Shown: positions 1,493 through 41,192 of the stretch, piece after piece
Layout of the letters: each line of letters begins with the position of its first letter
How positions within the stretch are numbered: the stretch's first letter is position 1
Source of the DNA: a virus
Direction: 5' to 3' (one strand)
DNA: 64,000 nucleotides
IMG/VR virus record: IMGVR_UViG_3300025701_000006
Location: 1-64,000 of that record
Translations under genes and position numbers: made by a program
The notes under the pieces: generated by a model
What the model saw: the letters and a program-made list of their open reading frames with translations, nothing else
What the model was told of the DNA's origin: nothing
The model's database searches: none

Positions 1493-2752
1493 ATGTCCTC
1501 CAATCGCAAAGCGTTTGATGAAGCCGTATCTAATATGGCAATCGCATCTAGTCCTTTTTTTAATGATTACGTATTTTATTTACATGTACTATCACAATGC
1601 AAAGTAGTATTTAAAGAAGATTTACCAGCGCCTGCAGGAGTTACTTTTCATAATGATCATTATGTTTTATACATAAACCCAACAGAAGTTATTAGTACAT
1701 TACCTGACGGTACAGAATGGTTAGGTTTCTGTGAACGTATGCCTCTTGCGCATCGCATAGGTATTATTAAACATGAAATGTTACATATTGTACTTGGACA
1801 TCTATTCCGTTCTAAGGATCTAGAGCACTACAAATACAACTTAGCTAGTGACTGTGCCCTTAACCAGCAAATCAATAGCGACCATTTACCAAATGGTGCT
1901 GTATACCCAGAAAACTTTCCTAATAAAAAAGCAAAGGATCATCTTAATGAAACAGCAGAACTCTATTATTCTCTTCTAGAAAGTCAAGACAATAATCATA
2001 ATAATGATGATGATAATGATGATAATGATGATAATGAAAAAGAACCTTACGCTATAGATGACCATTCCGTATGGAAAGAAATTACAGGTGATCAATATGT
2101 ACAGCAAGAAATAACTAAAAAAATGACAGAAAAAGCAGCAAATGATACCCAAAAATCTAAGGGTAACCTGCCGCAAAACTACAGCCAAATTATAGATAAC
2201 CTAACACACAAAAGAGAAGTAGACTGGAAACGTGTGCTGCGTTCTATAGTAGGCAACAAAAAAGCAAATAAACGTAAAACTCTTATGAGAAGAGATAGAC
2301 GTCTTCCTTTTGCAAACTGGATTAAAGGCACTACTAAAGACCGTGTACTTGAACTAGGAGTGGTATCCGATGTATCAGGCTCTGTTTGTAATGAAGCACT
2401 ACATTCTTTGTGGGGAGAAATCATAAACATATGCAAAGTGTACAACACTCCTGTAACAATGGTACAAGTGGATACACAACCATCAAAACCACAAGAACTT
2501 TCTAAAGGTGTAAAAACTGTAGAAAGAAAAGCATGCGGAGGTACATACTTATCTCCCGCCATAGAAAAATTTAAAGAATACAAAGTTAATTATGATGCCC
2601 TTGTTATTACAACAGATGGCTATCTATTTGATGAAGATATTACGCCTTTTCAAGAACTTAACATACCTATTGTATGGTTAATAGAACCAAACGGTCAGCT
2701 TATGAGCCAAATGAACAATGGGAAAATGAAAGGTATTAAACTAAAAGAGTAA
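1493..2752 (+). CDS. DUF2201-type metallopeptidase/VWA-domain protein
   Basis: HEMLH zincin motif, N/D-rich linker, MIDAS-like DVSGS, GGT and TDG motifs. Confidence 0.85.
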   Translation: MSSNRKAFDEAVSNMAIASSPFFNDYVFYLHVLSQCKVVFKEDLPAPAGVTFHNDHYVLYINPTEVISTLPDGTEWLGFCERMPLAHRIGIIKHEMLHIVLGHLFRSKDLEHYKYNLASDCALNQQINSDHLPNGAVYPENFPNKKAKDHLNETAELYYSLLESQDNNHNNDDDNDDNDDNEKEPYAIDDHSVWKEITGDQYVQQEITKKMTEKAANDTQKSKGNLPQNYSQIIDNLTHKREVDWKRVLRSIVGNKKANKRKTLMRRDRRLPFANWIKGTTKDRVLELGVVSDVSGSVCNEALHSLWGEIINICKVYNTPVTMVQVDTQPSKPQELSKGVKTVERKACGGTYLSPAIEKFKEYKVNYDALVITTDGYLFDEDITPFQELNIPIVWLIEPNGQLMSQMNNGKMKGIKLKE

Positions 2753-2757
2753 ACATT

Positions 2758-4059
2758 ATGAACATTCAAGAAGTTAAAGAGCTAATCGCAGCAGCTGACA
2801 TATGTGGACATGTGCCTCTTATCAAAGGTGTGCACGGTTTAGGTAAATCAGAATCAGCACACCAGTATGCAAAAGAAAACAACATGCATTTTGAACCTCT
2901 TATCCTTTCTTTAATGGATACAGGTGACATGCTAGGTTTGCCAGTAACTAGGGAAGTCAATGGTGTAATGTCTACGCAGTGGGCAGCACCTAGTTGGTAT
3001 ATCAATATCGTACAGGCAGCATGGCCTGCAGAACTAGATATTAGCAAACTAGAATTTACAGACAAAGACTTTCAAGAAAAAGCACTAAGAGTTATTTCTA
3101 ATCACAAACCTGTAACAACTAAGGTGCTAAATGATTACTACTGTAAATACTACAATGTTCCTAACGATAGACTACAACTATTACGTCAAAACAAAGTAAC
3201 TTACAAAGATAGCAAACGTTCGGTACTTTTTCTTGACGAGTTTAACCGTGCACCTGCAGACATCCTAAACGCTTCTCTACAGCTTATCTTAGACCACCGG
3301 CTACATACGCATGAATTGCCTATCGTAAACGGTCAGGAGACGCTTGTAGTAGCTGCTGTAAACCCTGCTGATGGTGATTACACCGTACAAGAGTTTGACC
3401 CAGCATTACTAGATCGTTTTGTAGATTGCGAAGTAACACCAGACTTTAAGTCTTGGCTTGCATGGGCTAAACAAAATAACATAAACCAAATGGTTGTAGA
3501 CTTTTTAGTAGATAACCAGTCTAAGTTTCATTTTAGTCCTAAAGATGGATCTAAAGGTACTTCTCCTCGTTCTTGGACAAGACTTGCTACATACATCGAT
3601 AACCTAAATTCTACACCAAAAGATATTATGCCACATTACTTAAAGGGCACTATTGGATCTAGTACTGCCGCACAGTTTATTATGTTTTATAATAACTATG
3701 GCAGCGGATTAACTATTAAACTACTAGAAAAGATGATTAAAGAGGAAATCACTAAACACAAAAAGACAAACCCAGAAGAAATTGCCGAGGCTGTTAAGCC
3801 CGCTGTAGAAAAACTAGAGGCAATTAGGATGATAGAATTTGCAGAAACTTTCGTAGAAAGTTATTTTGCAAAAACTACTACTAAAAATACGCTAGTGCCT
3901 ATTTCTTATTTGTATGCACTTCCTGTAGAATGCCTAGCTTCTGTGTTAAAAAGTCTGCAAACAAGTAACCCTAAAGCATATGCTAACCTAGCTTTAGCAG
4001 ACAAAACACATAACAACAAAAAACTATTTATGAAATTAGTATCACATCTTAAGGCATAA
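2758..4059 (+). CDS. MoxR-like AAA+ ATPase
   Basis: Walker A GVHGLGKS, Walker B LFLDEFNRA, DPALLDRF arginine finger, SPRSW; partner of the adjacent VWA gene. Confidence 0.88.
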   Translation: MNIQEVKELIAAADICGHVPLIKGVHGLGKSESAHQYAKENNMHFEPLILSLMDTGDMLGLPVTREVNGVMSTQWAAPSWYINIVQAAWPAELDISKLEFTDKDFQEKALRVISNHKPVTTKVLNDYYCKYYNVPNDRLQLLRQNKVTYKDSKRSVLFLDEFNRAPADILNASLQLILDHRLHTHELPIVNGQETLVVAAVNPADGDYTVQEFDPALLDRFVDCEVTPDFKSWLAWAKQNNINQMVVDFLVDNQSKFHFSPKDGSKGTSPRSWTRLATYIDNLNSTPKDIMPHYLKGTIGSSTAAQFIMFYNNYGSGLTIKLLEKMIKEEITKHKKTNPEEIAEAVKPAVEKLEAIRMIEFAETFVESYFAKTTTKNTLVPISYLYALPVECLASVLKSLQTSNPKAYANLALADKTHNNKKLFMKLVSHLKA

Positions 4060-7559: not shown

Positions 7560-7802
7560 ATGAAACTAATTAAATTCGAAGCACCTTGGTGCGGACCTTG
7601 CAAAATGCTATCTAAAACTATGGAAACTATCGAAATCCCTTTCGAAGTAGAAGTAATTAACATTGATGAAACACCTGAACTAGCTATGAAGTATAGCGTC
7701 AGGGGAGTCCCTACAGTTATCTTACTAGATGACAATGGCGACGTAAAAACTACCCATGTAGGTGCTCTAACAAAAGAGCTATTTATTGAAAAATTCTTAT
7801 AA
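7560..7802 (+). CDS. thioredoxin
   Basis: WCGPCK active site, VRGVPT cis-Pro loop. Confidence 0.92.
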   Translation: MKLIKFEAPWCGPCKMLSKTMETIEIPFEVEVINIDETPELAMKYSVRGVPTVILLDDNGDVKTTHVGALTKELFIEKFL

Positions 7803-25885: not shown

Positions 25886-26057
25886 GTCTATCTTCCAGGC
25901 TATCGGAATTGTTTTTGTGTGTGTGCTGTTAGTAGTACTAACTATTGCTACAATGTACTTAAGTTACATACTAGGCATAGGCTTCATGCTTATATGCCTA
26001 GTAGGTATTACTTATTACTTGCTAAGACTATTTAGTCCCAAAAACATCCATACCTAA
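25878..26057 (+). CDS. small 2-TM membrane protein (59 aa, TTG start, not in ORF track)
   Basis: AAGGA SD; MIKSIFQAIGIVFVCVLLVVLTIATMYLSYILGIGFMLICLVGITYYLLRLFSPKNIHT. Confidence 0.55.
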   Translation: MIKSIFQAIGIVFVCVLLVVLTIATMYLSYILGIGFMLICLVGITYYLLRLFSPKNIHT

Positions 26058-29000
26058 GTTTATAAGTGGGGGCATAGCTACAGTTGTTATTATATCAACA
26101 GGTGTGTATATTGGTGTTAATCCAAACACACCGTACTCATCCCCCGCTTTAATTAGCAAAGATTGATCTTGAATCATTTCTAGATCTAACCCAATACCTG
26201 CTCCGGCTAGCGTTATGGCAGTCCTGACGGCATGCTGACTACCTGCCTGAGTAATTACATGCTGTATACGTTTTACGTATTTAGTAAACATCAACACACC
26301 AATCCTATTTAAATACTCCTCGCCTCTGCTGTTAGGTAAGTTATAATTAACAAAAGAGTTTAAAAGTTGCGTGTGTCTGCTTGTTTTAGCTGTAGCCAAA
26401 AATTGCTCTCTTTCTGCTTTACCTAGTACCCTTCTTCTATCTGCTTTACCCATCCTATTTATCTGCTTTCTATATGCTAAAGGCAGGTCTCTTTTCCCAT
26501 CCGCTTGTTGTTCTTCAATTATTTTTTGCTTTCTATTCATTACATCTCTAGCAATTAAATCAGACATTTGTAACACTTCTTGATTTACTTTATACCATGC
26601 AGTCTCTTTACTTAAGTAAAGCCACTGTAAAGGAGTTTTAATTAAAGAAGGCACCTTACCTAACAACTTGTCCATTCCATCGCTAATCTTATTAGTATCA
26701 CCCAGCTTATACATATTTACATCTTCTATTACAGCTTGGTACATTCCTAAATCAAACAACTCTTTAATATCACTTTCTGACATTTCTTTTTCTATACGTT
26801 TAATTTCATTACGTAGGCGAGTAGCCTTATCGTTATAGTCACTAATTTCTTCATTATTTTTAAATCTAGTAGTGCTGTACTCTGCCACCAAAGCGTTTAG
26901 TTCTACCTTTTTAGCTTCTACTTGTTTTTGTTTTTTCATAAATTTACGAACGTCTTTAAAGCTATTAGCATAAGCTCCAACAATTTCTGTTAAACCCATT
27001 CCTGTATTTAAGGCATACAAAACATTAGAAATTATGTTTACTATTAGTATCACAGGCATCTTAAGAAGTATGTTACCTTTAGCTACCTTAACAAGATCTA
27101 CAAAGTAAGCTTCAAAAATATTTATAATACGTTTAATAGTACTAGGTAACTTGTTTACTCCATAAGCATCTGTAAATCTGGCATGCGAGTAGCCAAAATA
27201 TTGGTCCATCAACATACTAGGGATAGGTAAGCTTTTATCTTCCCTGCTGTTAATAAACCTTTGAAAGGAACTAGGTAGCTGATTAAACAGTTTACGCATT
27301 TCTGGATCTGAAGATTCCGCACTTATTAGGCTATACTCCATTAAGTTATTTTTGCTGTTAGGATTATCGTAAACATCTCGTAGGTTTTGTTTAATAAGCT
27401 TTAACGCATTGTCATTTTGTTTTTCTCTAGCAACTTTGTCTATTAATGTACCTGAAGTCTTTGAAAGTACATCGACTATACTTTTATTTTGCTTTAAAAA
27501 CTTATTTTTATCTTGTTTGTTCATCATGTTTCGGTAATCTACTACATTACCTAGGGCGTCTAAAACAGGTACAGATCCTTTTGGTATATCTTTAAAAGAC
27601 TTACCGTTATAAAGTTCTTCATTTATGCGTATTGCTTTAGCATTTAACTGGTTTCTATCAGCTTCAAACCACGCTTGTGCATGTTTTTTAGAATCTTGAA
27701 ATTGTGCATACCTTGCTTCTCTTAGAGTCATACCACGACTACCAGGATTTCCTAGACCTACAACACCACTTTGTCTTTCAGGCCTGCTATAGGTATCACT
27801 AATGTAAAACCCTATAGGTTCTGCACCTGATATATCGTTACCATCAAACACTGATGCTAGCTTAAATCCTTGCTTTTCAAGCTCTTCTTGCTCTGATACT
27901 AAAGCGTATTTAGTCTCTATGCCATCATCAAACAACTGCTTTATGTAGCCTTCTATCATGTGCGATGAATCATTTTTAAACAGTGCCTTTTCTGAGCCTT
28001 GTTTAAACGCTTCATATAGATTAACTACAGTCCTTACACCAGATTCTTCATTATTAATAAGGTCTACTACTAGTTGCTTGCTAAGGCCTTTTTGTTCTTC
28101 TAAAGCACTTAAAGAAGCCATTTCTTCTATTAACGCTTCTAATTCTTTATTTGTAGGTAAAATGTCGCTAGTCAAATATCCTTTTGCTATATTTCTACTA
28201 CTAGTATTTTGTGCTTCATGTCCTTCACCCGTGACCATAAACTCGCCTAATCCTTTAGCTTGTGCTACTAGCCAATTACCTCTTTTAGGATCTAGTTTTT
28301 TTATTCTTTTCTCTAGACGGTTTATTGCTTTAACTCTATACGCATGATCACCTATTAGTTTACTTACCTGATCAGTTGAATAACCCTTACCGTAGTTTTT
28401 GTTTTTATCAAACAGACTACTGGCATTTGACTCTAATAGTATTTCTGTTAAAGCTATCTTTTGAGGGTCGTTAAGCTCCTTACTAAACGCGTTTGTTATA
28501 GCTGTAGCTACGTTACCTACATGAGTGTTTCTGTATAAATCAATGTTATTAGTTTTTAAACCTAGGAGTTCTACAGGTCCTGATATCTCTTCTGTTACTT
28601 TAGGAAGAATACTTCTAACAATTTCTCTTATAGAGTTATCTGGCTTAATACCGTAACCAGTAAAAAAAGCTCCTGCAGCATCTCGGTAGTAGTTGTTGTA
28701 TATAGCCTTAGCAAAAAACTTACTAAAGAAAAGAACCTTCTGTATATGGTTCATATTTTGCGGTATTTCTACTTTATTTTCTGTATCAAATACTTTTGAT
28801 GCTGCACCATCTAGGAACTCTTCAATTCTGCCGTCTGTACGGTCTATTAAATCGCTTACTTGTGTAAGTAAGTTAGGATTGTCAGTCAGTTCTTTATCTG
28901 CAGTATTGTTTATTTCCGCTAACTTAAACGCTAAAGTATGTACTTCTTTTCTAAGGCTTTCGTTTTTGTTTTTAAAAGTATAGTTACCCATAACTGCATT

Positions 29001-30266
29001 TATTACGTCTGAAAAGAATGTTTTAATGGCCTCAAACATACCTGTTTTTGTTTTATCTTTTAGTTTTACCCCTTCAAGTAGCCCCATAAACCCGGGATTA
29101 GTTAAAGAGTACGCTATAAACTCATCATTAGACGTTTCGCTATTAAATATGTAATCGTATCTGTCTTTAGCTTCCTTTGACGTTAGAGCAGGCTCTGCAC
29201 GTTTTATGTCTTGCCATGTGATGTTTTTACGTGCCTGTGCCATCAAAAAGTTAAGGCGCTCTTTTAACGACGTAGCCTCTCTGCCTTCACTTCTAAGAGC
29301 CCAAGCTGTCATTGTATGTACAGTTTCATGCATATACACTTCAGCGTTGCTCATATTAGAGCTAGTGAGTTTACTGGTGTTTAACAACATATGCTCTTTG
29401 TCTATATCAACCCATCCAGCAGCATGTTCTTGATTTTCATTAATAAAAATATTCATTCTTCTAAAGAAATGCTCATGCATGTTATCTAGTAAGCTGTTAT
29501 ACCAATAATACATCTTGTCAGTAGTAGGTTTACCTCCTATAGCGTGTAGATCTGCTAGCATATTCTTCATATCTTCTACACTACCATGTACGTAATTTTT
29601 CTTTAGGCTGCTTTTTTCATACCTAAAAGTTCCCTCATCAAACTGCTCGCTCGATTTTAAGATGTCCTCTGCACTAGCATCACTTTCTACAATTTTTCTC
29701 ATACTAGCTAAATGACTGTTGGCACTCGTAGCTAGCTCTTCTCTACGCAGCTCTCTACTGACCCCTGAAGTAGTGCTGGCTATAACGGACCCAATACTTT
29801 TAAACTGAGGTATATACATTTTTATTTGACGTTCTTTAGATGCCCTAGATTCGTTTCTATCTAAATCAAAAGTATAAGTCTGTATATTTTCTTTACCTTT
29901 CCTAGTAACTTTAAGTTCTATTACTTCTATATTATTGGCATCTTTAGTTACTAAAGCGGACTTAACTACGTAATCAGCTCTTTCAGTACCTTCAGTAGGG
30001 CGTTTGCTTACAGCAGCCTTAAACACTTGCCCTAGCTGTTGCTTAGCTAGAACAGTACTTACGTCGTTAGTAAGCTCTGCTCGTGCAAACTCGTCTAACG
30101 CTGTAAAATCTTTTTCATTTAACAATTTAAGGGCTTTTTTATTTCTAGCTATAGACTCAGATAGTACTTCACCTTCTTTAGTGACTAGCATAGTTTTTTC
30201 TAGCTTTTCAGCTCTTGTTATACTAGCCTTAAAGGCTTTTTCTACTGTATTTATATCACAAACCAT
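26028..30266 (-). CDS. virion ejection protein equivalent to the C-terminal domain of N4 vRNAP, with a zincin-like motif
   Basis: HETVH...DEFIAYSLTNP, FVNYNLP...YLNRIGVLMFTKY; 1412 aa; TAATG-coupled to the polymerase gene. Confidence 0.75.
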   Translation of the reverse strand: MVCDINTVEKAFKASITRAEKLEKTMLVTKEGEVLSESIARNKKALKLLNEKDFTALDEFARAELTNDVSTVLAKQQLGQVFKAAVSKRPTEGTERADYVVKSALVTKDANNIEVIELKVTRKGKENIQTYTFDLDRNESRASKERQIKMYIPQFKSIGSVIASTTSGVSRELRREELATSANSHLASMRKIVESDASAEDILKSSEQFDEGTFRYEKSSLKKNYVHGSVEDMKNMLADLHAIGGKPTTDKMYYWYNSLLDNMHEHFFRRMNIFINENQEHAAGWVDIDKEHMLLNTSKLTSSNMSNAEVYMHETVHTMTAWALRSEGREATSLKERLNFLMAQARKNITWQDIKRAEPALTSKEAKDRYDYIFNSETSNDEFIAYSLTNPGFMGLLEGVKLKDKTKTGMFEAIKTFFSDVINAVMGNYTFKNKNESLRKEVHTLAFKLAEINNTADKELTDNPNLLTQVSDLIDRTDGRIEEFLDGAASKVFDTENKVEIPQNMNHIQKVLFFSKFFAKAIYNNYYRDAAGAFFTGYGIKPDNSIREIVRSILPKVTEEISGPVELLGLKTNNIDLYRNTHVGNVATAITNAFSKELNDPQKIALTEILLESNASSLFDKNKNYGKGYSTDQVSKLIGDHAYRVKAINRLEKRIKKLDPKRGNWLVAQAKGLGEFMVTGEGHEAQNTSSRNIAKGYLTSDILPTNKELEALIEEMASLSALEEQKGLSKQLVVDLINNEESGVRTVVNLYEAFKQGSEKALFKNDSSHMIEGYIKQLFDDGIETKYALVSEQEELEKQGFKLASVFDGNDISGAEPIGFYISDTYSRPERQSGVVGLGNPGSRGMTLREARYAQFQDSKKHAQAWFEADRNQLNAKAIRINEELYNGKSFKDIPKGSVPVLDALGNVVDYRNMMNKQDKNKFLKQNKSIVDVLSKTSGTLIDKVAREKQNDNALKLIKQNLRDVYDNPNSKNNLMEYSLISAESSDPEMRKLFNQLPSSFQRFINSREDKSLPIPSMLMDQYFGYSHARFTDAYGVNKLPSTIKRIINIFEAYFVDLVKVAKGNILLKMPVILIVNIISNVLYALNTGMGLTEIVGAYANSFKDVRKFMKKQKQVEAKKVELNALVAEYSTTRFKNNEEISDYNDKATRLRNEIKRIEKEMSESDIKELFDLGMYQAVIEDVNMYKLGDTNKISDGMDKLLGKVPSLIKTPLQWLYLSKETAWYKVNQEVLQMSDLIARDVMNRKQKIIEEQQADGKRDLPLAYRKQINRMGKADRRRVLGKAEREQFLATAKTSRHTQLLNSFVNYNLPNSRGEEYLNRIGVLMFTKYVKRIQHVITQAGSQHAVRTAITLAGAGIGLDLEMIQDQSLLIKAGDEYGVFGLTPIYTPVDIITTVAMPPLINLGMDVFGTK

Positions 30267-33200
30267 TATTTACACCCTTCAATTTTTTCTAATGCACTAA
30301 CTAGGCTATCTACGTCCGAGACACTAGATAACTCATCTACAATCTTACTCTGTACTGATGATTTTACCATAGATAACCCATCAATTACTTTATTAATAGC
30401 TTCAACTACTGTTTTATTTGTTATTTTTGTTTTTCTATTGTTGTAGTATGCTATTAACTTATCAGCTTTTTCAGGGTTTTGAATAATATCCTCTATAACA
30501 TTATCTGCGTTTACATTATCTACACCTAAACGTTTATTTAGTTCTTTAAGCAGGGCCCTAGGAGCGGCCTCAAACACTTTTTTTAGTTCTGCAGCTTTTT
30601 CTGCAGACCTATCTACAGGTACGTCTAATTTAACGGCTTTGTACATATTCTTAAGCGCGTTTTTGTAGCTAAGATCAGCAGAAGTCATACCTTTTTGGTA
30701 CACCGCTCCAGGTGTTCCAACTAGATTTCCGTAGTAAGCACCTTCCATTAAACCATTTTCCCCATACCATAATTCCCTAGCTTTTTTAATGCCGGAAATT
30801 TCGGTTTTTAGGTTGCCTAATACACTTTTAGCCAAAGCAGGAAATGCTTCTTTAACCTTAGGGTCTGCGGCTTTTAGTCCTAATGCTGTAACTTTTTCAA
30901 AATCTTTACTAAAGGTCGTACTACTTATTGTTTTTTCTAACCTATTTGCAAACTCCTGCAGCGCCTCTGCTAGTACATAGTTTTTCTTGCTGTTAATATC
31001 GCTAGGGTTACCTTCAGAGTTAATGGTTTCCATACCTTTTTGGTAAGCAAACCCTGCGTTGTCAGACTGGTTTAAAGGAGCAATTATTGCATCGTGTATT
31101 AAAGTTAAAGCACGTAACTGCAAATCGTTCATCATTAAGCTTATCTCAGCGCCATCAATAGCATGAAACGGTAATACAGAACCAGAACTTATTGCTTCTT
31201 CTAGGTACCTAACTAAAGGCGTTACAGTCCTAGTTTTAGTATTTTTGCCTTCTCCAAGCATAGTCTGTGGTTTTTTACGGCTTAGCTCAATCTCATTAGG
31301 AGATCTAGTGGACGTAGTGACTACAGCTATGACTGCTTTTTTCTCTTTAGCACCGGTAAGCGGGCCTACAAGGTATGGAAAGTCGTCCCATAACTCTTCT
31401 AGTACTTTTGCATGATCTTCTAAAGTAACTACGTTATTAGGGTTTCTTTTTTGAATATCCTTAAGCTTGTCTACACGTTTTTTATCAAAAATACGAAATG
31501 CTACTTTAAACCCATCGTTAATAGCGTTTTGTACTTTAATAAAAGGCTTAAAGTTTGTTTCAAAAACAGTTTTTACGGCTTCTCCGTATGTAGCACTTAC
31601 AGTAAACTCTAACAGCTGCTCTAAATTTCTAGCAGTATTAGTGCCTTTACGTGTTTGCGAAATAACCAATGGTACTTTAAGTTTAATATCTTTTAGTCTA
31701 AAGTCTTTTAGGGCTTGCTGGAGCTCTAATATATTTTTTATCTTTTTATCGCTTTTTGGGTATAAAAACTCTCCTCCTGCTGCCAGTAACTTTTCCGCTG
31801 TTTCTTTTGCAGTTAAGTCATTTTCAAAATCACTAGTCGCAATACCTTTTGCTATATCTTTAGCAACAGAAATACTTAAGTTTTTGACTATTCTTCCTAC
31901 GCTAGCACTGTAGTTGAATATCATAAACGGGTCTTTAAATAACGCACGTAATTTTTTGTCTATACTACTAGCAACACCTGAAGATCCAATAGTTTCACCT
32001 CCAGGGAGTAACTGTTTAATAGCTTCAAAGACTTTACTTCCAGACCTGCCTTCACCTCTTGATACCGTCAAAGAAGTACTGCCCGACGTTACTTCTTCAT
32101 TAACTAGGGTGATAGTGTCCGTAGCCATATTCTCATATGAATCTAAAAATCCTATCTCTCCTTTTTTTCCTGCAGCTAAAATATCCGCTGCAGACATACC
32201 TTGTGAAGGGTCAAATGGAATACCATCCCCTTTAAAACTAGACTGCAGTAGTACATCTTGATACGATTTAGTAATAATACCTACTCGGGCAAAATGAGAA
32301 TGCATATCATCAAGTATAGGCATCTGTTGTATTTTATTGGCAAAACCACTAGTTAATGAGTCAAACTCTAACGACAGTGCAGAAGTAACTTTACCATTAC
32401 CAGTAAGGGCATCTTGTACTTTTTCTAAAAAATCTAGTGCTTGTAATGCGTGGGAAAGATGTTCCGCTTCAAGTTCATACTCAATACCTTTCATATCAGC
32501 AGGATCTGCATCACTGCTACTGTCTGTATTAGCGTCACCAGTAACTTCGGTATTTAAGGTTTCAATTGTAAACTTGCCTGTAGACATAATAGACTTTTTA
32601 GCTTCTGCTATTTCTGCTTTATTCATACTAAGCACAGCATTACCATAGTCTATAATATCTTTAACATCCATCTTATCTACGCCCTTACCTAGGGCTTGTC
32701 CTAGAGCTAATCTCACAGTAAAGCTTTGATCTGCGTCCAAGGGGTCACTTACACCTTCTACGTTAAACTCTAAACCACCTTCTGTATTTGTATTTACATC
32801 ATAAGTAAGTCTATGCAGTTTAGGTACGATAAAAAATCTATGCAGTTTATCTGTTTGAGGTTGTGTAGTATTTGAATCTAGCATAAACCTATTGTTACTT
32901 GCATAAAAGTAAGGATAGTGCATAGATGGATCTAAGTTACCTACTCTATCCATTTTTTCTCTAAGTAATCTAAGCTCATCAATGCTTTTTTCTATGTCTC
33001 TATTTTTAGCTTCTTGTACTTCTTTCTCATCGTAAAACAGGCTATCAAATTTATCACTTGTTAAATCAATAAAGCCTAGTAACGTTTTGATGTTGCTTTC
33101 ATCTGCATCTACTGCTTCTAAGAACTCGTCAACAAGGTTAACATCGATACCATACTCGGTTTCCATAGCAAGCTTCATAGTCTCTTTAGCTTCCTCAGGA

Positions 33201-36200
33201 ACAGTTATACCTGCTATATCGTTACGAACCTCACTAACAGCTTTGTTGATACGATCTTTTGTAAGAGGAGAAAAAGAAGGCTCTTTACGCTCTGTAGTAG
33301 CCTCAGGAAACCCTTTTACTGCTCCTTCGTACTTTTCTACAAAAGCAGTTACTTCTTCTGTAAGAGCGTTATTAGTAAAGTTACCCTGACGTACCGGTCT
33401 ATCTTTCAGATGAATAAAGAAAGTTTTAGTTTCAATTTCTCTAACTTCTCCATCTTTAAATAACCTAGCTATGTCATTTGAACTAGGGCTAGTACTGTCC
33501 AATATTCCTTGTTCTTGTGCTATTAATACTGCCATGTTGCCAAGGTCAGCAAGTAATGCCTCGTACTCTGCTGAAGATGTAGTGCTGTTTTTCTTTTTAG
33601 ACAGACCAAGTTGCTTTAAGGTAGCTTTGCCCAAAGAGTTAGCTACAGTTTTAAGAAGTGCTCCGTTATCCCTAGCAAAATCACGCATTTCTTTAGTTAC
33701 TTCATGTGGCTGGAGGCCTAGCATGGTAGCTATATCTTCGTCAGACTTATAACCTCTAGACACCTTTGCTTTATCATTAGCAGCCATTTCGCCTATAGCT
33801 AGGTACATAGCAGCTAAAACTTCTTTGTTAGGTTTGCCTTTGTTGTTAAACACTAAACCTCTAGCAGGGGAGTTATGCAAAAACAAGTTACCAGGTAAGA
33901 ATTTACCATTTACTCTTATATCAGTTTGGTCTGATAGCTCTGCTTCACTAACTTTTGCTAAACTTTTATCTGCTGCAGTTACAAATTTATTTGCTGCTGT
34001 TTTTATGGCGTAAGGTAAGTTATCAAAAGATAGAGAATTAAGCACAGTAGTTTTGTCTGCTTTTACAAGCTTACCTGCATCCTGAACTACTTTTCTTGTA
34101 CCTAAGAATATATGTTCATTACCGTAGAATATAGTACCTCTACCTTTATTAGCGGCTTCATATCCTTCTATTGCTTTATCAGACAAAGGATCCCTAGATA
34201 GTTTTACTACAACTTCACCAGTCTTGGATTTTAAAAATAGTATCTCATACAGATCTTTTTTGTTTTTAGAAAAGGACTTCTCACCTAGTATACTGTTAAT
34301 AACCGATTTACTTGTATTGCCTATACTTTCTAATAACCTACTAACAGCTTTTTCTTTTTTATCAAAAGAAAGGTCTTGATCTATTATACCTTGCCAATCT
34401 TTTAAAGCTTGCTTACCTGCTTTTCCTTTTTCCTCTTGAGCTTCAATGTACTTGGTTACACCGGCCTCTAGCGCTTTATCTTTAAATGCGATTGGGTCTG
34501 GATCTGTAGCTCCAAGAACTGCTTCTGCTTCATTTTTTACATCGTCTATAAAACGACGTTCTAAAAAAGATGTTAGCCTATCACTTTTACTACTAAAGCT
34601 GTTGTCTTTTACTGTATCGAATAAAGTAGAATACTCTTTTTTAGCAGCAGCTTTGGCTTCATCAGTAAGGGCTTCGCCTGTAACAGAGTCGATAGATGTC
34701 TCTATAGATCTATAAAGAGTCACCAATGCCTCTTTGTTATCCTCACGAAACTGCGCAGCAGTATTGCTTTTCTCTAGTTTTTCTTTGTAATTACGTAAAG
34801 CTTTTTTATTATCCGCAGTTTCTTTAATTAAGATATGGCGAGACTTATCTTTTAGAATAGCGTAACCTTTATCCTTTATTTTTTTAAGCAACGCTTCTTT
34901 ACCTAGTGCTACTTCTTTGGTAAGTTTTCCTTGAACTAGGTCAGAGTCTAGTACAATAGTTGCTCCTGCTTCCATAGCAGCCACTAAGGAAGCTTCACCT
35001 TCTACACCTAAGTCAGGAACTTTAAAACCTTTTTTAATACTTTTAGTACCTACACTATTTATAAGTACTACGTCATCAGCAGAAAACTCTTCATTATTTA
35101 TTAAAAAACTATTAGATTTATAATAGTCACCTTTAAGAGCCCATTTAGCTGTAGTATCTTTTCCTAATATTACTTTGTTTACTTCAGATACTTTTTTGTT
35201 TAGGTCATTAAGAACTTTACTAACGCTACTTAAGTAACTGGTGTCTGCTTTACGTGCAGTTTTACTGCGTCCTTCTTTTACAGGTATAGTAATACTTCCA
35301 GACATAACAGAAATATCATCAGTTTTAAAACTAGCATTGCTGCTGATAGTCTGCATTTCTCTTTTTATATCTTTTAAGTATACAGATTTCCTAGCTATTA
35401 AATCTTTAGCACCCTTAATGTTAGGTACCATTTTACCGTTTTTAAACTCGACAGTAATTAGATAAGGGTCATCATACTTTTTAGTCTTATTATTGTACTT
35501 GTTGTACTCAGTTTTGACATATTGGGTTTTTTTAGACGTTAACGGTTTTTTATTTAAATCTGCTGCTACCCTTTTAGCTTCTTCTATACCTCTATTTAAA
35601 GATGTAACTGAAGCGCTAACAGAACTATTAATCCTAGATAAAGCTACCATTTCACTGTTTATAGCTTTTTTGTTGGGATTAGAGCTTTCTAGTAGCCCTT
35701 TAAGCCTAGATATCCTAGCTGCGTAGCCAGTACTTCCTTTAGTAGCTTCATCTTCGACCGTAGTATAACTTTTTACTAAACTGTCATAACGCTCTACACT
35801 TACATTGTTACGGGTAGCGAAGCTTTTCATTGTAGTAGTAAATGCTTCATCGTAAGACCTGCCACTACCTAGTAGTGTATTAACTATGCGCTCCGCGTCT
35901 ACACTACGAGTGTAATCTGTGTATTCCTTTTGCTCTTCATCAAGGTTAGGAGCTGACCCTAATACATTTCCACTTGTAGTAGTGCTATTTTCTACCGCAG
36001 TAAAATTCTCTATACTATTATTTCTAACAAAATCTTGAATAACATCATAAGTCTCTTCTAATGTCTGACTTGTTTTTCCGGTAAGTGCAGACTCTAAAGC
36101 AACTAATTCAGGAGCAACCGAATTTGGCTCTATAGAACTATTGCTGTAACTTCCTGATTTAAACGTTGATACTATGCTATCAAAAGCTTTTTCTGCGGTA

Positions 36201-38554
36201 ACATCATTACCGTCACCTAACACTTTTCCTAAATCTGTAATTGCGCTTTTAACGTTAGCAGGGACAGAATTAATAGTGTCTGCTTTAGTCTTTTCTTCTA
36301 GAGACTGTCGTATCGACTTACGAACTATTTTACCTGTAAGTTGGGTATTTTTGTTTTCACGAACAAACTGTTCAAGTCCGTCTAAAATTCTGTTGTATAC
36401 AGCTTCTCCAGCCTCTTTTTGTTCTTTAGGTGAAGAGTCAATAACGTATTTAGTAGCGTTAATTTCATCTATATCATCTAGTAAAGCACCTACATTGTTT
36501 GCGGTAACCCCTTCTTTAGCAGTAGTATTTGCCACTCTAGTTAATAAAGCTTTGTAAGCATTTTTGTCTGATACTATAGTATCTTCTGATAACGTTTCGT
36601 TAACGTCAGTATTAGGCAGTGTGCCTGGTACATTACCTTTAGCGGTGTTGCCAGTAATAGGCTGATTACCTTGCCCAAACATACCAAACCCAGTACGTAA
36701 AGAACCTACAGCCTCAAACTGCCCAGCACCACCTGCACCTAGTAAAGCAGCAATACCTGCTTCTGTTGTGTTTCTCTCATCTGTAATAAAGTCAGTAAAC
36801 GTTTCAACATCTTTAAATAGTTCTGTACCAAACCTAGTGTTAAATAGCTCCATCATTGTTTGTGAGTATTCTTGAGCAGCTTCTACTGTGGCTAATGCAC
36901 CTGACTTAATTACTCCTTTACCCATCATAAGAGTAGCATTTGCAAATTGTTTATTGGTTAGGTCTTTTATAGCAGGGGCTATAGAGGTAAGGATCCCTGG
37001 ATTCTTTATTATATTTATATTAACAAATTTATCTAGGTTCTGATTAAGCAGTTGTACACCTAAACTTCTTGCAAAGTAACTAGCTTTATCCTCACTATTT
37101 AATTCATTCCCATTATTATTCTTTACAAACTGTTCGTACTGATTGTTTACGTTACCTATAGCTGCTGTTAATTGTCCAGACTGGCTTACTAAAAGACTTT
37201 TAGCTCCATCTGTACTAGCCAGAGCTTTTAATTTTTCTGCTCTGCCTTGTCCCTTGGTGATTTTATTAGTATTTACAGCTTCTTCAATACTTTTAACAGT
37301 TTTACTATATTTTGTACCTGCACCTAGCAGGTTTAAAAACTTACCTGGACTAATCCAAGCTAAAAGAGCACCTAGGCTAGTCCCAAGCAATTCTGGGGTA
37401 GTGTAAATTTCTCCTAGTGCGCTAAACGCAGCACCTACTTTGTCTATCGTAGATGCTTCTTTATCTACCAATACGTCGTAGTAACCACCAACACTTTCGA
37501 CGGTTTCTTGTAGATTTTTTGGGTCATAACCAAAGAAACTGTTTACAGCAGAAGCTTTACTTTCTTGGTCACCAAGGTCATAAAGCCCTGTAAAGTCACC
37601 TAAAGCATCTAAAGGATTTACCGCTAGTTCAGACACAAAAGTAGCGCCAAAGCCTGAAAAAGCATTGCCAACTCTGTTTATGGCCTCTACAACCTTGTTT
37701 GTTTCCATAGTAGGTTCATAGTAACTAGGTTGCTTAAGGTCTGAAGCGTCTGTACTTTCTACAGGTTCAGCACCTCCTCCTTTAACTATTGCCATAGCTT
37801 TATTAAAACCAGCAATGACTTTTTCTTTATCTACTTTTTCAATATCATACGACTGGTTAGCCAAAGATTCTCTATTTATGTAGTACTCACTAGAGCCACT
37901 ACCAAACAGTGCATCTTTTTCTTCTTTGGTTATTGTACGAATACCTTGAGGAGAGTTATAATCGTATAGACCATCTTTTCTGCCTCTAATAACTCTGTTA
38001 TTAAAGTTATTTAAATTTGTGTGGTTTAAGCTTTCAAAAGCCTGTGCGGCGTATTTTTGAAGGTTGTCATCATACCTTTTATCATTTACATCAACACCAG
38101 CGGTACCTGAGCTCCACCCTTGTTCTTTTCCTGCTCTGATTAAGCCTTCTTCTTCCGCTTTCCCAGGAATGTAACGATAGTCAGATGAATTAAACCTGCC
38201 AGAAGATAAGCCAAGCTTTACAGGATCGTAGTTTTCTGGAGTAAAAGCCTGCGCAGGATCTATTGCTTTGCCTTCTTCTTTTACACCGTACATATAAGAT
38301 CTACGGTCATTTCGACTAGAGTCTGGTAAAGAATACCCTTCCCTAACTAAGTCATTTAAAAACCCCATTTCATCTTTAGACCAGTCTTCAGAAATACCCC
38401 AAATCTTGTTCCCATTATTTTCTATGTACCCATCACCTAGGTCCGTGTAAGTACTAGAATCAAGAGACTCAGAGGCATAACTACGCTCTGATAGATTTGC
38501 AATTTTTTCTTCTTTGCTCTTAGAAATACGGGAGAGTTTATCGGTAAATGACAT
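30266..38554 (-). CDS. N4-like virion RNA polymerase (N-terminal plus polymerase domains), 2762 aa
   Basis: NNRFML...PQTDKLHR, motif A LEFDSLTSG (~32342-32380), motif B RALFKDPFMIFNY (~31910-31948), motif C LIHDAI (~31085-31105); ATG 38554 has an AAGGA SD. Confidence 0.88.
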   Translation of the reverse strand: MSFTDKLSRISKSKEEKIANLSERSYASESLDSSTYTDLGDGYIENNGNKIWGISEDWSKDEMGFLNDLVREGYSLPDSSRNDRRSYMYGVKEEGKAIDPAQAFTPENYDPVKLGLSSGRFNSSDYRYIPGKAEEEGLIRAGKEQGWSSGTAGVDVNDKRYDDNLQKYAAQAFESLNHTNLNNFNNRVIRGRKDGLYDYNSPQGIRTITKEEKDALFGSGSSEYYINRESLANQSYDIEKVDKEKVIAGFNKAMAIVKGGGAEPVESTDASDLKQPSYYEPTMETNKVVEAINRVGNAFSGFGATFVSELAVNPLDALGDFTGLYDLGDQESKASAVNSFFGYDPKNLQETVESVGGYYDVLVDKEASTIDKVGAAFSALGEIYTTPELLGTSLGALLAWISPGKFLNLLGAGTKYSKTVKSIEEAVNTNKITKGQGRAEKLKALASTDGAKSLLVSQSGQLTAAIGNVNNQYEQFVKNNNGNELNSEDKASYFARSLGVQLLNQNLDKFVNINIIKNPGILTSIAPAIKDLTNKQFANATLMMGKGVIKSGALATVEAAQEYSQTMMELFNTRFGTELFKDVETFTDFITDERNTTEAGIAALLGAGGAGQFEAVGSLRTGFGMFGQGNQPITGNTAKGNVPGTLPNTDVNETLSEDTIVSDKNAYKALLTRVANTTAKEGVTANNVGALLDDIDEINATKYVIDSSPKEQKEAGEAVYNRILDGLEQFVRENKNTQLTGKIVRKSIRQSLEEKTKADTINSVPANVKSAITDLGKVLGDGNDVTAEKAFDSIVSTFKSGSYSNSSIEPNSVAPELVALESALTGKTSQTLEETYDVIQDFVRNNSIENFTAVENSTTTSGNVLGSAPNLDEEQKEYTDYTRSVDAERIVNTLLGSGRSYDEAFTTTMKSFATRNNVSVERYDSLVKSYTTVEDEATKGSTGYAARISRLKGLLESSNPNKKAINSEMVALSRINSSVSASVTSLNRGIEEAKRVAADLNKKPLTSKKTQYVKTEYNKYNNKTKKYDDPYLITVEFKNGKMVPNIKGAKDLIARKSVYLKDIKREMQTISSNASFKTDDISVMSGSITIPVKEGRSKTARKADTSYLSSVSKVLNDLNKKVSEVNKVILGKDTTAKWALKGDYYKSNSFLINNEEFSADDVVLINSVGTKSIKKGFKVPDLGVEGEASLVAAMEAGATIVLDSDLVQGKLTKEVALGKEALLKKIKDKGYAILKDKSRHILIKETADNKKALRNYKEKLEKSNTAAQFREDNKEALVTLYRSIETSIDSVTGEALTDEAKAAAKKEYSTLFDTVKDNSFSSKSDRLTSFLERRFIDDVKNEAEAVLGATDPDPIAFKDKALEAGVTKYIEAQEEKGKAGKQALKDWQGIIDQDLSFDKKEKAVSRLLESIGNTSKSVINSILGEKSFSKNKKDLYEILFLKSKTGEVVVKLSRDPLSDKAIEGYEAANKGRGTIFYGNEHIFLGTRKVVQDAGKLVKADKTTVLNSLSFDNLPYAIKTAANKFVTAADKSLAKVSEAELSDQTDIRVNGKFLPGNLFLHNSPARGLVFNNKGKPNKEVLAAMYLAIGEMAANDKAKVSRGYKSDEDIATMLGLQPHEVTKEMRDFARDNGALLKTVANSLGKATLKQLGLSKKKNSTTSSAEYEALLADLGNMAVLIAQEQGILDSTSPSSNDIARLFKDGEVREIETKTFFIHLKDRPVRQGNFTNNALTEEVTAFVEKYEGAVKGFPEATTERKEPSFSPLTKDRINKAVSEVRNDIAGITVPEEAKETMKLAMETEYGIDVNLVDEFLEAVDADESNIKTLLGFIDLTSDKFDSLFYDEKEVQEAKNRDIEKSIDELRLLREKMDRVGNLDPSMHYPYFYASNNRFMLDSNTTQPQTDKLHRFFIVPKLHRLTYDVNTNTEGGLEFNVEGVSDPLDADQSFTVRLALGQALGKGVDKMDVKDIIDYGNAVLSMNKAEIAEAKKSIMSTGKFTIETLNTEVTGDANTDSSSDADPADMKGIEYELEAEHLSHALQALDFLEKVQDALTGNGKVTSALSLEFDSLTSGFANKIQQMPILDDMHSHFARVGIITKSYQDVLLQSSFKGDGIPFDPSQGMSAADILAAGKKGEIGFLDSYENMATDTITLVNEEVTSGSTSLTVSRGEGRSGSKVFEAIKQLLPGGETIGSSGVASSIDKKLRALFKDPFMIFNYSASVGRIVKNLSISVAKDIAKGIATSDFENDLTAKETAEKLLAAGGEFLYPKSDKKIKNILELQQALKDFRLKDIKLKVPLVISQTRKGTNTARNLEQLLEFTVSATYGEAVKTVFETNFKPFIKVQNAINDGFKVAFRIFDKKRVDKLKDIQKRNPNNVVTLEDHAKVLEELWDDFPYLVGPLTGAKEKKAVIAVVTTSTRSPNEIELSRKKPQTMLGEGKNTKTRTVTPLVRYLEEAISSGSVLPFHAIDGAEISLMMNDLQLRALTLIHDAIIAPLNQSDNAGFAYQKGMETINSEGNPSDINSKKNYVLAEALQEFANRLEKTISSTTFSKDFEKVTALGLKAADPKVKEAFPALAKSVLGNLKTEISGIKKARELWYGENGLMEGAYYGNLVGTPGAVYQKGMTSADLSYKNALKNMYKAVKLDVPVDRSAEKAAELKKVFEAAPRALLKELNKRLGVDNVNADNVIEDIIQNPEKADKLIAYYNNRKTKITNKTVVEAINKVIDGLSMVKSSVQSKIVDELSSVSDVDSLVSALEKIEGCK

Positions 38555-38584
38555 TAAAAAATCCTTAGTAGGTAATCTACAGGT

Positions 38585-38595
38585 ATTATAACACA
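38585..38595 (-). promoter_or_regulatory. extended -10 promoter for the vRNAP gene
   Basis: TGTGTTATAAT (TGnTATAAT) directly after a terminator. Confidence 0.6.
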
Positions 38596-38631
38596 AAAAC
38601 CCCCTAGTTCCATATAGAGACTAAGGGGTTT
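38595..38631 (-). terminator. intrinsic terminator after the gp51-like gene
   Basis: CCCCTTAGT...ACTAGGGGG followed by TTTTT on the - strand. Confidence 0.65.
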
Positions 38632-38649: not shown

Positions 38650-40713
38650 TTACCTAATATTACCGGACGCTAAAGACTGTGCACGAGTAGGAGGACCAAC
38701 AATAGGACTAGCATTAGAAGTCCTACGGACTAGTGCAGGTATCTCAAAAGTGGCCTCTTGCTGACGGGCTGTTCTAGCCGCTGCTTGTGCCGGAGTAGGA
38801 GGTCCGTAAGTATTACCCCCCTTAGCCCCTGTTCTATTAAACGCTCTATTACGACTAGCAGTATTTAGTTTAGCCCGTAACCCACCAATAAAACTACTAA
38901 TAGCCGCAGGATTTTTAAAACCGTTATAAAGGCCCATAAAACCGTTAAATGCTTTACGACCCCCATATACGTTCATAATGGGAGTACTCAGAACTAATGC
39001 TTGTTCCTCTTCTGTAGGAAGTGTAAGTTCATATCTACTTCCATCAGCGAAAACAGGATCAATATTACCTGATTGTACATCAGCTACTATTTTTTCAATT
39101 CTGTCTTTAGTTAATGGCTGTTCAGTACCATATGTCATGTTTAAAGCATCTATATTTTCTTTAACTGATAAATCTGTACTTCCGGCAACATTGGCAAACT
39201 CGTATAGATTAGCTAAAGCGTCTCTATCAGAATTAGGTCTGATGCTTAAATCACTTAAAGTTGTAAGATTATTAGGTTTTGTCGGTTTTACGTTTGAAAG
39301 TATCTGTTTAAGCTCTAAAGCGTTAACTACAGCAGTATCAGGATTTTTTCCTTGTTGTACTGCTTCTTGGCGTGTTTTAGTGATTTCCGCTGGAGTAAGA
39401 ACTGCCTCCCTGTTTTTAGGAGTAGGTAAAGAAGCATCCACAGTAGATGAACCACTATCAGTAGATTCTGAAGTTGTAGGCACTCTTATAGGAAATCCTA
39501 GTGCTTGAGGCATTAAGTCTCTTAAACCACCAGTAAACGCAGCCCTATTAGTGTTTACGTAATCAGGTGCAGCTACTACCTCAGGCATAAAACTATCAAC
39601 AAGCTCTTCACGAGTAAGCTCACCGTTTGAATTTTCTAGTTTTTGTATGCCTTTAGCAAAAGATGTAAAAGCATCCGAGCTGCCTTTCGGACTCTTAAAA
39701 AAGCCTACTGAAACAAAGTCTTTTAAAGAATTTTTTGCAATAGATGGGTTTACGCCTGCGTTTACAGCGTCTTTATACATGTTTAAAAGTGTAATATCAT
39801 CAAGAGGACCTGCATCAATTTCTTCTGCAATGTAATTACTTACATCTAGTTCACTTGTTTTTTTATCTCCAAATTTATTTTCTTTTGATTTATTAGCATT
39901 CCATACTTTAAAAGATATATCTGCAAGCTTATTAGCTTGCGTTTGTTGAGCCTTTTGCGCAGCAACAGCTAGTTTTGTCAAATTTGCCGTACTTTCATAC
40001 CCCATAGACAATTTATCAGCAGTAGTACTGGCTACTTGAGGAGATACCCCTTTAGAAAGTAAATCGTTATAGATTCTAATATTTTCATTTTCACGATACA
40101 CAGGCTTATTTGATACTACGTAGTTATCAAACTCTTTATTAAAATTAGCTAGTTGCTCATTAAAACTGGTATAGTCTTCTTTTGATATTTCACCGTTTTT
40201 GTAGTAATCCTGAATAGCTGCTAACGGATCTTCAGGCAAGTCTGCTTGAGTAGGAGAAAAATCTTCTCCATCATCTCCAAACATGCCGCGTATTGCCTTT
40301 AATTCATTACTATTGTTAATCTGATTAATAAAGAAGTTGTTTGCAAGAGTTTTTGCACCTTCAGCTCTACCTTGTTCAAGAATAGTTTTAAGCTCAATGT
40401 CATTATCTATTGCTGCATTTGCCGCACTTTTTCTGTCAAACATGCTCAGGTTACTAAGTGCTGCTCTTTCTGCTTGTTCTCCAGCTAGTTTAGCATTGTA
40501 CATGTCAGTTTGTCGCTTATCTAAACGCTTTTGTCTAGCTATTTCATCATTATACCTAGTAGTTTGACGCTGTTCTAAAAGGTTTTGACGGCTAAGTTGG
40601 TCTTGATACCGTTTTTCGTCAGCTTCTCTGTCTTTTCTTTGGTTGCCTTGCTTCCTATAACCACTAGCTATATCACTAAGAAGGCGACTGGTCGATTCAA
40701 AAGGGTCTATCAT
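38650..40713 (-). CDS. internal virion/ejection protein (N4 gp51 position)
   Basis: 687 aa, no Cys, coiled-coil N-terminus, synteny with N4. Confidence 0.55.
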   Translation of the reverse strand: MIDPFESTSRLLSDIASGYRKQGNQRKDREADEKRYQDQLSRQNLLEQRQTTRYNDEIARQKRLDKRQTDMYNAKLAGEQAERAALSNLSMFDRKSAANAAIDNDIELKTILEQGRAEGAKTLANNFFINQINNSNELKAIRGMFGDDGEDFSPTQADLPEDPLAAIQDYYKNGEISKEDYTSFNEQLANFNKEFDNYVVSNKPVYRENENIRIYNDLLSKGVSPQVASTTADKLSMGYESTANLTKLAVAAQKAQQTQANKLADISFKVWNANKSKENKFGDKKTSELDVSNYIAEEIDAGPLDDITLLNMYKDAVNAGVNPSIAKNSLKDFVSVGFFKSPKGSSDAFTSFAKGIQKLENSNGELTREELVDSFMPEVVAAPDYVNTNRAAFTGGLRDLMPQALGFPIRVPTTSESTDSGSSTVDASLPTPKNREAVLTPAEITKTRQEAVQQGKNPDTAVVNALELKQILSNVKPTKPNNLTTLSDLSIRPNSDRDALANLYEFANVAGSTDLSVKENIDALNMTYGTEQPLTKDRIEKIVADVQSGNIDPVFADGSRYELTLPTEEEQALVLSTPIMNVYGGRKAFNGFMGLYNGFKNPAAISSFIGGLRAKLNTASRNRAFNRTGAKGGNTYGPPTPAQAAARTARQQEATFEIPALVRRTSNASPIVGPPTRAQSLASGNIR

Positions 40714-40751: not shown

Positions 40752-41192
40752 TTAAATGTTACGTGGTTTGTTTAGGTTAGCTCTTTTGTCAGAGAGAAAC
40801 TTACGATTGTCTTGAGCATTAGCTAAATTAACTTTCCCTAAGGCTAGTTGTTGTTCCATAGCTTTTTTCCTATCACCGTACCCAAGAAGGTTAAGGGCTA
40901 AACCACCAATAGTCGCCATGTTGCTGATAGCAAACTCGTCTTTAAGCAAATTACCAAAATAGCTATCTTCACCTGGAGGAGCAATTTCCGTACCACCCGT
41001 AATTCTTTTTGTATTAGGATCTACTTTCAGGCCATCCAAAGCGTATGTTTTTCCTCCCATCCCCTCTAAAAGACTATTATCACCATAAGTTACCGCTTGT
41101 GCAGGTGTTACGGTACTGGGCTGATAGTTCATACCTTGCGTAAATGCACTAACCCCAACTGGTTTAGTAAAAAAATCATATTCGTCGTTCAT
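40752..41192 (-). CDS. small ejection protein (N4 gp52 position)
   Basis: 146 aa, no Cys, Gly-rich hydrophobic helix IGGLALNLLG followed by a coiled coil. Confidence 0.6.
   Translation of the reverse strand: MNDEYDFFTKPVGVSAFTQGMNYQPSTVTPAQAVTYGDNSLLEGMGGKTYALDGLKVDPNTKRITGGTEIAPPGEDSYFGNLLKDEFAISNMATIGGLALNLLGYGDRKKAMEQQLALGKVNLANAQDNRKFLSDKRANLNKPRNI

Follow-up and report, generated by a model that had tools for sequence, protein, structure and literature searches.

This analysis deals with a virion RNA polymerase (vRNAP) that is encoded in a 64,000-nucleotide (nt) stretch of DNA from a marine N4-like phage, here called the window (IMG/VR virus record IMGVR_UViG_3300025701_000006, positions 1 to 64,000). 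The enzyme is of the phage N4 type and is encoded by two adjacent genes, designated A and B, with a combined length of 4174 amino acids (aa). The only cysteine (Cys) of each protein lies at the end that faces the other. The features of the locus, all on the minus strand, are as follows.

30266..38554 (-), vRNAP piece A, 2762 aa, ATG at 38554, C-terminus ...IEGCK; an N-terminal ejection/membrane region, then a T7-like RNA polymerase (RNAP) domain, then a variable tail
30875..34057 (-), RNAP domain of A, approximate, residues ~1500-2560, placed by motifs and hhalign
30269..30874 (-), tail at the C-terminus of A, ~200 aa with final residues ...EKIEGCK, variable and poorly conserved
30275..30280 (-), GAAGGG, Shine-Dalgarno-like, 8 nt upstream of the B ATG and within the E-G codons of A, read directly
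30272..30274 (-), TGT codon of Cys2761 of A, read directly
30264..30268 (-), TAATG, the stop codon of A overlapping the start codon of B, read directly and the same in four assemblies
30258..30260 (-), TGT codon of Cys3 of B
26028..30266 (-), vRNAP piece B, 1412 aa, beginning MVCD; an N-terminal head (~250 aa), then an N4-type C-terminal domain (CTD)
26142..29510 (-), part of B homologous to the CTD of N4-like vRNAPs, residues 253-1375, placed by PHROG and profile matches

A first-pass annotation of the sequence had described genes of 2762 and 1412 aa joined by TAATG, with GAAGGG upstream and a single Cys in each product, at the penultimate residue of A and at residue 3 of B. Direct reading confirmed the genes, the junction and the purine-rich element, and a scripted count returned one Cys in A (residue 2761) and one in B (residue 3). 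The overlap of stop and start codons suggests translational coupling of A and B, and GAAGGG is the putative ribosome-binding site of B. The mechanical open reading frame (ORF) call for A (P0035, LCYSTC...) begins at a TTG 14 codons upstream (38555-38596, minus strand), adding two spurious Cys. The ATG at 38554 is backed as the start by P0036, which is 90% identical and has the same first residues.

Searches of Pfam, PHROG, PDB (phmmer) and profile against PDB gave no match for A. By tblastn, residues 1588-2070 of A match N4-like vRNAPs (E 3e-8), and by hhalign residues 1601-2400 align with N4 gp50 1168-1870 (probability 96%, E 3e-9). The hhalign alignment pairs D2065 of A with N4 D1556 (motif A), and R2203, K2207 and Y2215 with motif B of N4. 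N4 D1556 is D559 of the mini-vRNAP, and the names of motifs A, B and C are those established for the T7 and N4 polymerases. The motif A and B residues, together with H2487-D2488 of motif C, are invariant in 29 homologues of A. In relatives the tail that follows measures between ~35 and ~130 aa, with nothing but its terminal Cys kept. As for B, residues 253-1375 match phrog_2206 (vRNAP) at positions 2292-3379 of 3406 (E 3e-115), and the B profile matches N4 gp50 2456-3378 in 9PNR (E 5e-38).

Extrapolation from these mappings of A and B places the break near the N4 RNAP-CTD linker, residues 2102-2124, as the first-pass annotation had proposed in setting it near the boundary between polymerase and C-terminal domain. 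In N4 this is a 23-residue disordered linker that is invisible in the structure (PMC13434306). The two halves thus resemble N4 gp50 and other Schitoviridae vRNAPs (e.g., gp71 of Pseudomonas phage DEV; PDB 9PNR, 9PNT) in having an N-terminal region, a T7-like RNAP domain with its catalytic motifs and a large gp50-type CTD, in following two Cys-free ejection genes, and in being purged of Cys elsewhere. They differ in two respects: gp50 is one chain of 3500 aa with a count of 0 Cys, as the first-pass annotation had stated for N4, whereas the chain of the window is cut near 2102-2124 and bears one Cys at each new end. Together, A and B would make up one functional N4-type vRNAP that is interrupted in the flexible stretch linking RNAP to CTD. 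Homology and their position in the structural module make it likely that the virion carries both proteins and ejects them into the host.

The closest isolates are the cultured Alteromonas phages vB_AmaP_AD45-P1 to P4 (Garcia-Heredia et al. 2013, PMC3821669), in which ORF127 and ORF126 show 27-32% identity to A and B. The same arrangement is found in the window, with adjacent co-directional ORFs of ~2500-2800 and ~1400 aa homologous to ORF127 and ORF126. The AD45 vRNAP is likewise a two-gene enzyme cut at the RNAP/CTD boundary, with one Cys 2 residues before the end of the large piece and one at residue 4 of the small piece. The junction differs, being a 7-nt gap in AD45 and TAATG in the window. 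A tree of the CTD places the window within a clade of two-piece chains, divided between RNAP and CTD, that includes AD45.

The split between A and B is genuine. A similar picture might arise from a sequencing error, from a single-chain vRNAP gene turned pseudogene, or at a site of programmed frameshifting: one added base would fuse the A and B frames, and the AD45 region is annotated in GenBank as a potential frameshift. Against this, positions 29800-30800 are identical, with no inserted or missing base, in contigs of four separately assembled marine metagenome runs (2017, 2024), in which word depth reaches 592, although some of these runs may be the source of the window itself. The extra A that would have joined the two ORFs is not seen in any of the four assemblies. 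The B frame carries a TAA two codons ahead of its ATG, and over 60 relatives, the most distant at 24% identity, keep the two-ORF state with differing junction layouts. For AD45, PCR re-sequencing verified the stop codon, and polypeptides of 270 and 175 kDa were seen on gels (PMC3821669). A locus that does appear to be broken by frameshift errors looks different (L051, below). Assemblies, homologues and the AD45 re-sequencing refute an artefact or frameshift for practical purposes, and its probability is judged negligible.

Both Cys are conserved among homologues of the two proteins. B has 32 homologues (30-91% identity, 1352-1792 aa), and every one of them contains a single Cys, located at residue 3 or residue 4. 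Cys3 is invariant in the alignment of B and is the sole invariant column in the alignment of its head. Among 33 homologues of A (24-90% identity) a single Cys stands 0-3 residues before the C-terminus, and the column of Cys2761 is invariant. In one of the 33, P0037, residue 13 is a further Cys, which a miscalled start probably accounts for. The one real exception is a distant protein of 4767 aa with 15 Cys.

That two Cys at the junction are unlikely to have arisen by chance had been argued earlier, and this can now be quantified. The replication-module proteins of the window, which are encoded on the opposite strand, contain 0.998% Cys; at this rate ~42 Cys are expected per 4174 aa, and 2 are found (Poisson P(<=2 Cys) = 7e-16 for A and B together). 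The probability that the lone Cys of each protein should lie no more than 3 residues from the facing ends is 2e-6. In a class of proteins that purges Cys to this extent, an invariant pair needs a strong function.

A wider survey was carried out by scanning viral contigs with alignment queries, which returned 78 loci; B as a single-protein query returned none. From these contigs 26 split lineages were taken, less than 70% identical to one another, and the window was added. A facing Cys pair is present at 32 of 32 genuine breaks within vRNAPs. The upstream Cys lies 0-4 residues from the end of its piece, and the downstream Cys within the first 2-10 residues. In N4 numbering, which derives from a rough alignment, the breaks fall at about five places (~940-985, 1077, 2100-2180, 2320 and 2363), and the positions of the Cys shift with the position of the break. 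Six chains are in three pieces (L008, L067, L069, L072, L076 and L079), and in these each end of the middle piece bears a Cys. The number of Cys per piece equals the number of broken ends, with one in end pieces and two in middle pieces.

Controls agree with this pattern. Of 20 unsplit vRNAPs (3100-4450 aa), 16 are free of Cys, N4 gp50 among them, and no Cys pair was found at ~24 boundaries between an upstream gene and the start of a vRNAP. In L051 (1695-13327) an apparent three-part vRNAP lacks a proper Cys pair, and its frames overlap and stay open across the supposed breaks. This fits an unsplit gene broken by frameshift errors, and L051 groups with unsplit vRNAPs on the tree.

The CTD tree requires at least six changes of split state. 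Nested among the split L013, L015, L016 and L024 is L018 (3935-13360), an unsplit vRNAP of 3141 aa with 0 Cys, in which the RNAP end is joined straight to the CTD; the split forms have a Cys-tipped tail of ~45 aa and a head of ~100-330 aa that L018 lacks. Either re-fusion in L018 or repeated splitting among its relatives could account for this. BLAST comparison between tips of different break classes revealed no shared, portable clasp module, and cross-class matches were confined to the collinear body.

Several individual loci depart from the common layout. In the two-piece L070 (1797-9071) the large piece covers what pieces one and two make up in its three-piece relatives L069, L076 and L079; besides its terminal Cys it contains an internal Cys at residue 1867, which may be the relic of a healed break. 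The unsplit L062 (1874-12133, 3419 aa) is Cys-free except for ...SWSCDC at its C-terminus, and no gene beginning MxC is present in the 490 nt left on the contig. The C-terminal Cys of L062 may link it to another protein. Cases in PMC11445570 may represent further genuine splits with Cys-tipped ends.

A structural precedent comes from Anabaena phage A-4L (cyanopodophage A4). The sole Cys of its gp27 (1717 aa) is residue 1715, and that of gp26 (1114 aa), encoded next to it, is residue 5. Cryo-electron microscopy shows a Cys1715-Cys5 disulfide between gp27 and gp26 in the packaged pre-ejectosome (PNAS 2025, PMC12002296). As in the window, the ejection genes are adjacent and co-directional; the upstream Cys of A4 is 2 residues from the C-terminus and the downstream one is at residue 5. 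The window carries the same signature, with sole Cys near the upstream C-terminus and within the first ~5 residues of the downstream protein. The A4 proteins differ in containing no RNA polymerase and in belonging to a T7-like core stack in another phage family, and one bond was reported there, with no rule.

Taken with this precedent, the comparative evidence supports the interpretation that the halves are rejoined. We infer that A and B are probably linked by a head-to-tail disulfide between their tips that restores one linear chain. Injection and polymerase activity would reside in A, whereas B would carry the domain on which encapsidation depends in N4. According to work cited in PMC3821669, the C-terminal domain of the N4 vRNAP is required for encapsidation and the N-terminal domain for injection. 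With injection assigned to A and encapsidation to B, each half would need the other. The tail of A might act as a tether carrying the Cys tip, and in both proteins the Cys, penultimate in A and third in B, would sit on a floppy tip. An AF2 model of the B head (pLDDT 71) shows residues 1-3 as a disordered tip just before a helix of residues 5-23.

The disulfide would form once assembly is complete, either within the capsid or later in oxic seawater. With stubs of just 1 and 2 residues projecting past the bond, the product would be in effect one linear chain of ~4170 residues. The N4 vRNAP has been proposed to leave the virion as beads on a string through a channel of ~35 A, and its CTD inhibits the polymerase weakly in trans (PMC13434306). 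The linked chain could in the same way be packed 1:1 and drawn through the narrow tail channel, A first and then B. The reducing cytoplasm would subsequently open the bond, freeing the polymerase from a CTD that is auto-inhibitory in N4. A need for a linear, threadable chain would require that the Cys be terminal and that all others be purged.

A number of points weigh against this interpretation. Four divergent unsplit vRNAPs (L023, L034, L027 and L062) hold a few Cys. A test of split state against Cys content on phylogenetically independent pairs yielded 5 pairs, none contrary, which are too few for significance (p ~0.25). Because assembly takes place in the reducing cytoplasm, non-covalent docking of the halves would have to come first, and no docking surface is evident, the tail of A being variable in length and poorly conserved. 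Complex prediction for the A tail (2560-2762) and B head (1-560), both supplied as alignments, gave a score of 0.01, which speaks neither for nor against binding. On AD45 gels the pieces ran as two separate bands, and the paper is silent on reducing conditions (PMC3821669). PDB searches, in which N4 gp50 was the sole sequence match, and Foldseek with the B head, revealed no sequence or fold relation between A or B and A4 gp27 or gp26, so the A4 pair stands as an analogy and not as homology. Compared with PDB by Foldseek, the B head model gave no match at E <= 0.001 and resembled neither A4 gp26 nor another chain.

The AD45 bands could also be taken to mean that the halves are held non-covalently or act apart, with Cys that do not link the pieces and meet a different local requirement (end protection, translation coupling or processing, for example). 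This is unlikely overall, although it accords with the finding that the separated RNAP and CTD of N4 are each stable and functional in vitro (PMC13434306), and the purine-rich codons just before the Cys of A may double as the ribosome-binding site of B. A cause at the nucleotide level is excluded: the Cys codons at breaks are both TGT and TGC, junction layouts span everything between an 11-nt overlap and a 26-nt gap, and the Cys tips are retained in L028, L029 and L044 despite other genes between the pieces. In two of these loci (L028, 4425-6228; L029, 3667-6045) an N-terminal piece ending ...WKECK is separated from an RNAP-CTD piece beginning MGSKTC... by two unrelated ORFs, of 434-623 aa and 116-121 aa. 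Since the tips are kept there in spite of the intervening genes, the clasp is independent of gene adjacency.

Junction Cys in separately translated halves also recall split inteins. Here, however, no intein blocks are present; the Cys of A is 1 residue from the end of the protein and does not start an IntN of ~100 aa, and B has no IntC. Protein trans-splicing by a split intein was rejected, as no Pfam intein or Hint domain was found and AD45 virion preparations show two polypeptides and none spliced. Readings of the tips as lipobox or CaaX motifs were ruled out by motif position.

If the thiols do join the halves, they might do so through a metal ion (e.g., Zn2+) or a shared multi-copy site, by coordination in place of a disulfide. 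A few relatives have two Cys at one tip, namely L071 (head MCMSC), L072 (middle-piece tail ...CNDGTSC) and L062 (C-terminus ...SCDC), which would suit such a site. B also contains an HExxH motif (MHETVH; residues 313-317; 29316-29330, minus strand) that is invariant in a 33-sequence alignment of B; it may be the same as the putative zinc-binding motif mentioned in the DEV paper for the CTD (gp71-C). On the other hand, one Cys per tip supplies two ligands only, and no conserved His, Cys or Asp partner stands beside either of them. The AD45 clade has Glu in place of the first His of HExxH yet keeps the Cys pair, and for this reason a cysteine switch or zinc site on HExxH was set aside. The sole solved example of the signature is moreover a disulfide, that of A4 (PMC12002296). 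Metal coordination is accordingly given a low probability.

It might also be that each terminal Cys bonds elsewhere, in a mixed disulfide with a virion or host envelope protein, or undergoes thiol modification, so that the pairing is indirect. The unsplit L062 ends in Cys without a known partner. Yet the Cys always occur in facing pairs, their count per piece equals the number of broken ends, and the bond in the A4 structure joins neighbour to neighbour (PMC12002296). The neighbouring ejection proteins of the window offer no Cys; as the first-pass annotation had stated for its gp51-like and gp52-like proteins, the count is zero in both ORFs, which were assigned by position only:

38650..40713 (-), 687-aa protein, 0 Cys, in the position of N4 gp51
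40752..41192 (-), 146-aa protein, 0 Cys, in the position of N4 gp52

Bonding to other partners is likewise given a low probability, and a direct disulfide between A and B is preferred. The 687-aa protein gave no match in PHROG, Pfam and PDB sequence searches.

The pattern across lineages raises a more general and more tentative idea. It is possible, though doubtful, that terminal Cys clasps are a general and repeatedly evolved means of cutting giant ejected proteins at any inter-domain linker while leaving them one threadable chain, with the disulfide acting in addition as a redox timer. Such a bond would hold the polymerase and its auto-inhibitory, encapsidation-competent CTD together in the capsid and through the periplasm, until cytoplasmic thiol systems opened it and early transcription was switched on. 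A thioredoxin of 80 aa is encoded in the replication/metabolism module of the window (7560-7802, plus strand; PF00085, E 9e-15; CGPC active site). It was considered as a dedicated reductase or oxidase of the clasp, and no specific link was found.

Ejected phage proteins are held to avoid Cys because they cross the oxidising periplasm. The DEV survey set aside Cys near "truncated" ends as annotation errors. The AD45 authors took the presence of Cys as a sign of non-injection and did not remark on the terminal, facing placement (PMC3821669). The pattern described here reverses both readings, the only tolerated Cys being those that would tie one piece to the next. A real bond would explain how both packaging, through the C-terminal domain, and injection, through the N-terminal domain, are possible for a split vRNAP. 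A bond at the very ends keeps the chain linear, so the clasp, if real, would support ejection as beads on a string; it would also represent a natural, reducible tag for protein ligation.

The splitting of the vRNAP was published in 2013, and one disulfide between ejection proteins in 2025. No paper was found that links a split vRNAP to a disulfide or states a facing-Cys rule for vRNAPs, and the capping of every vRNAP break by such a pair is, as far as found, unpublished. Elsewhere in the window (1493-4059, plus strand), the gene for a 419-aa DUF2201 metallopeptidase/VWA-like protein precedes that for a 433-aa AAA_5 MoxR-like ATPase, a pair with no obvious phage role.

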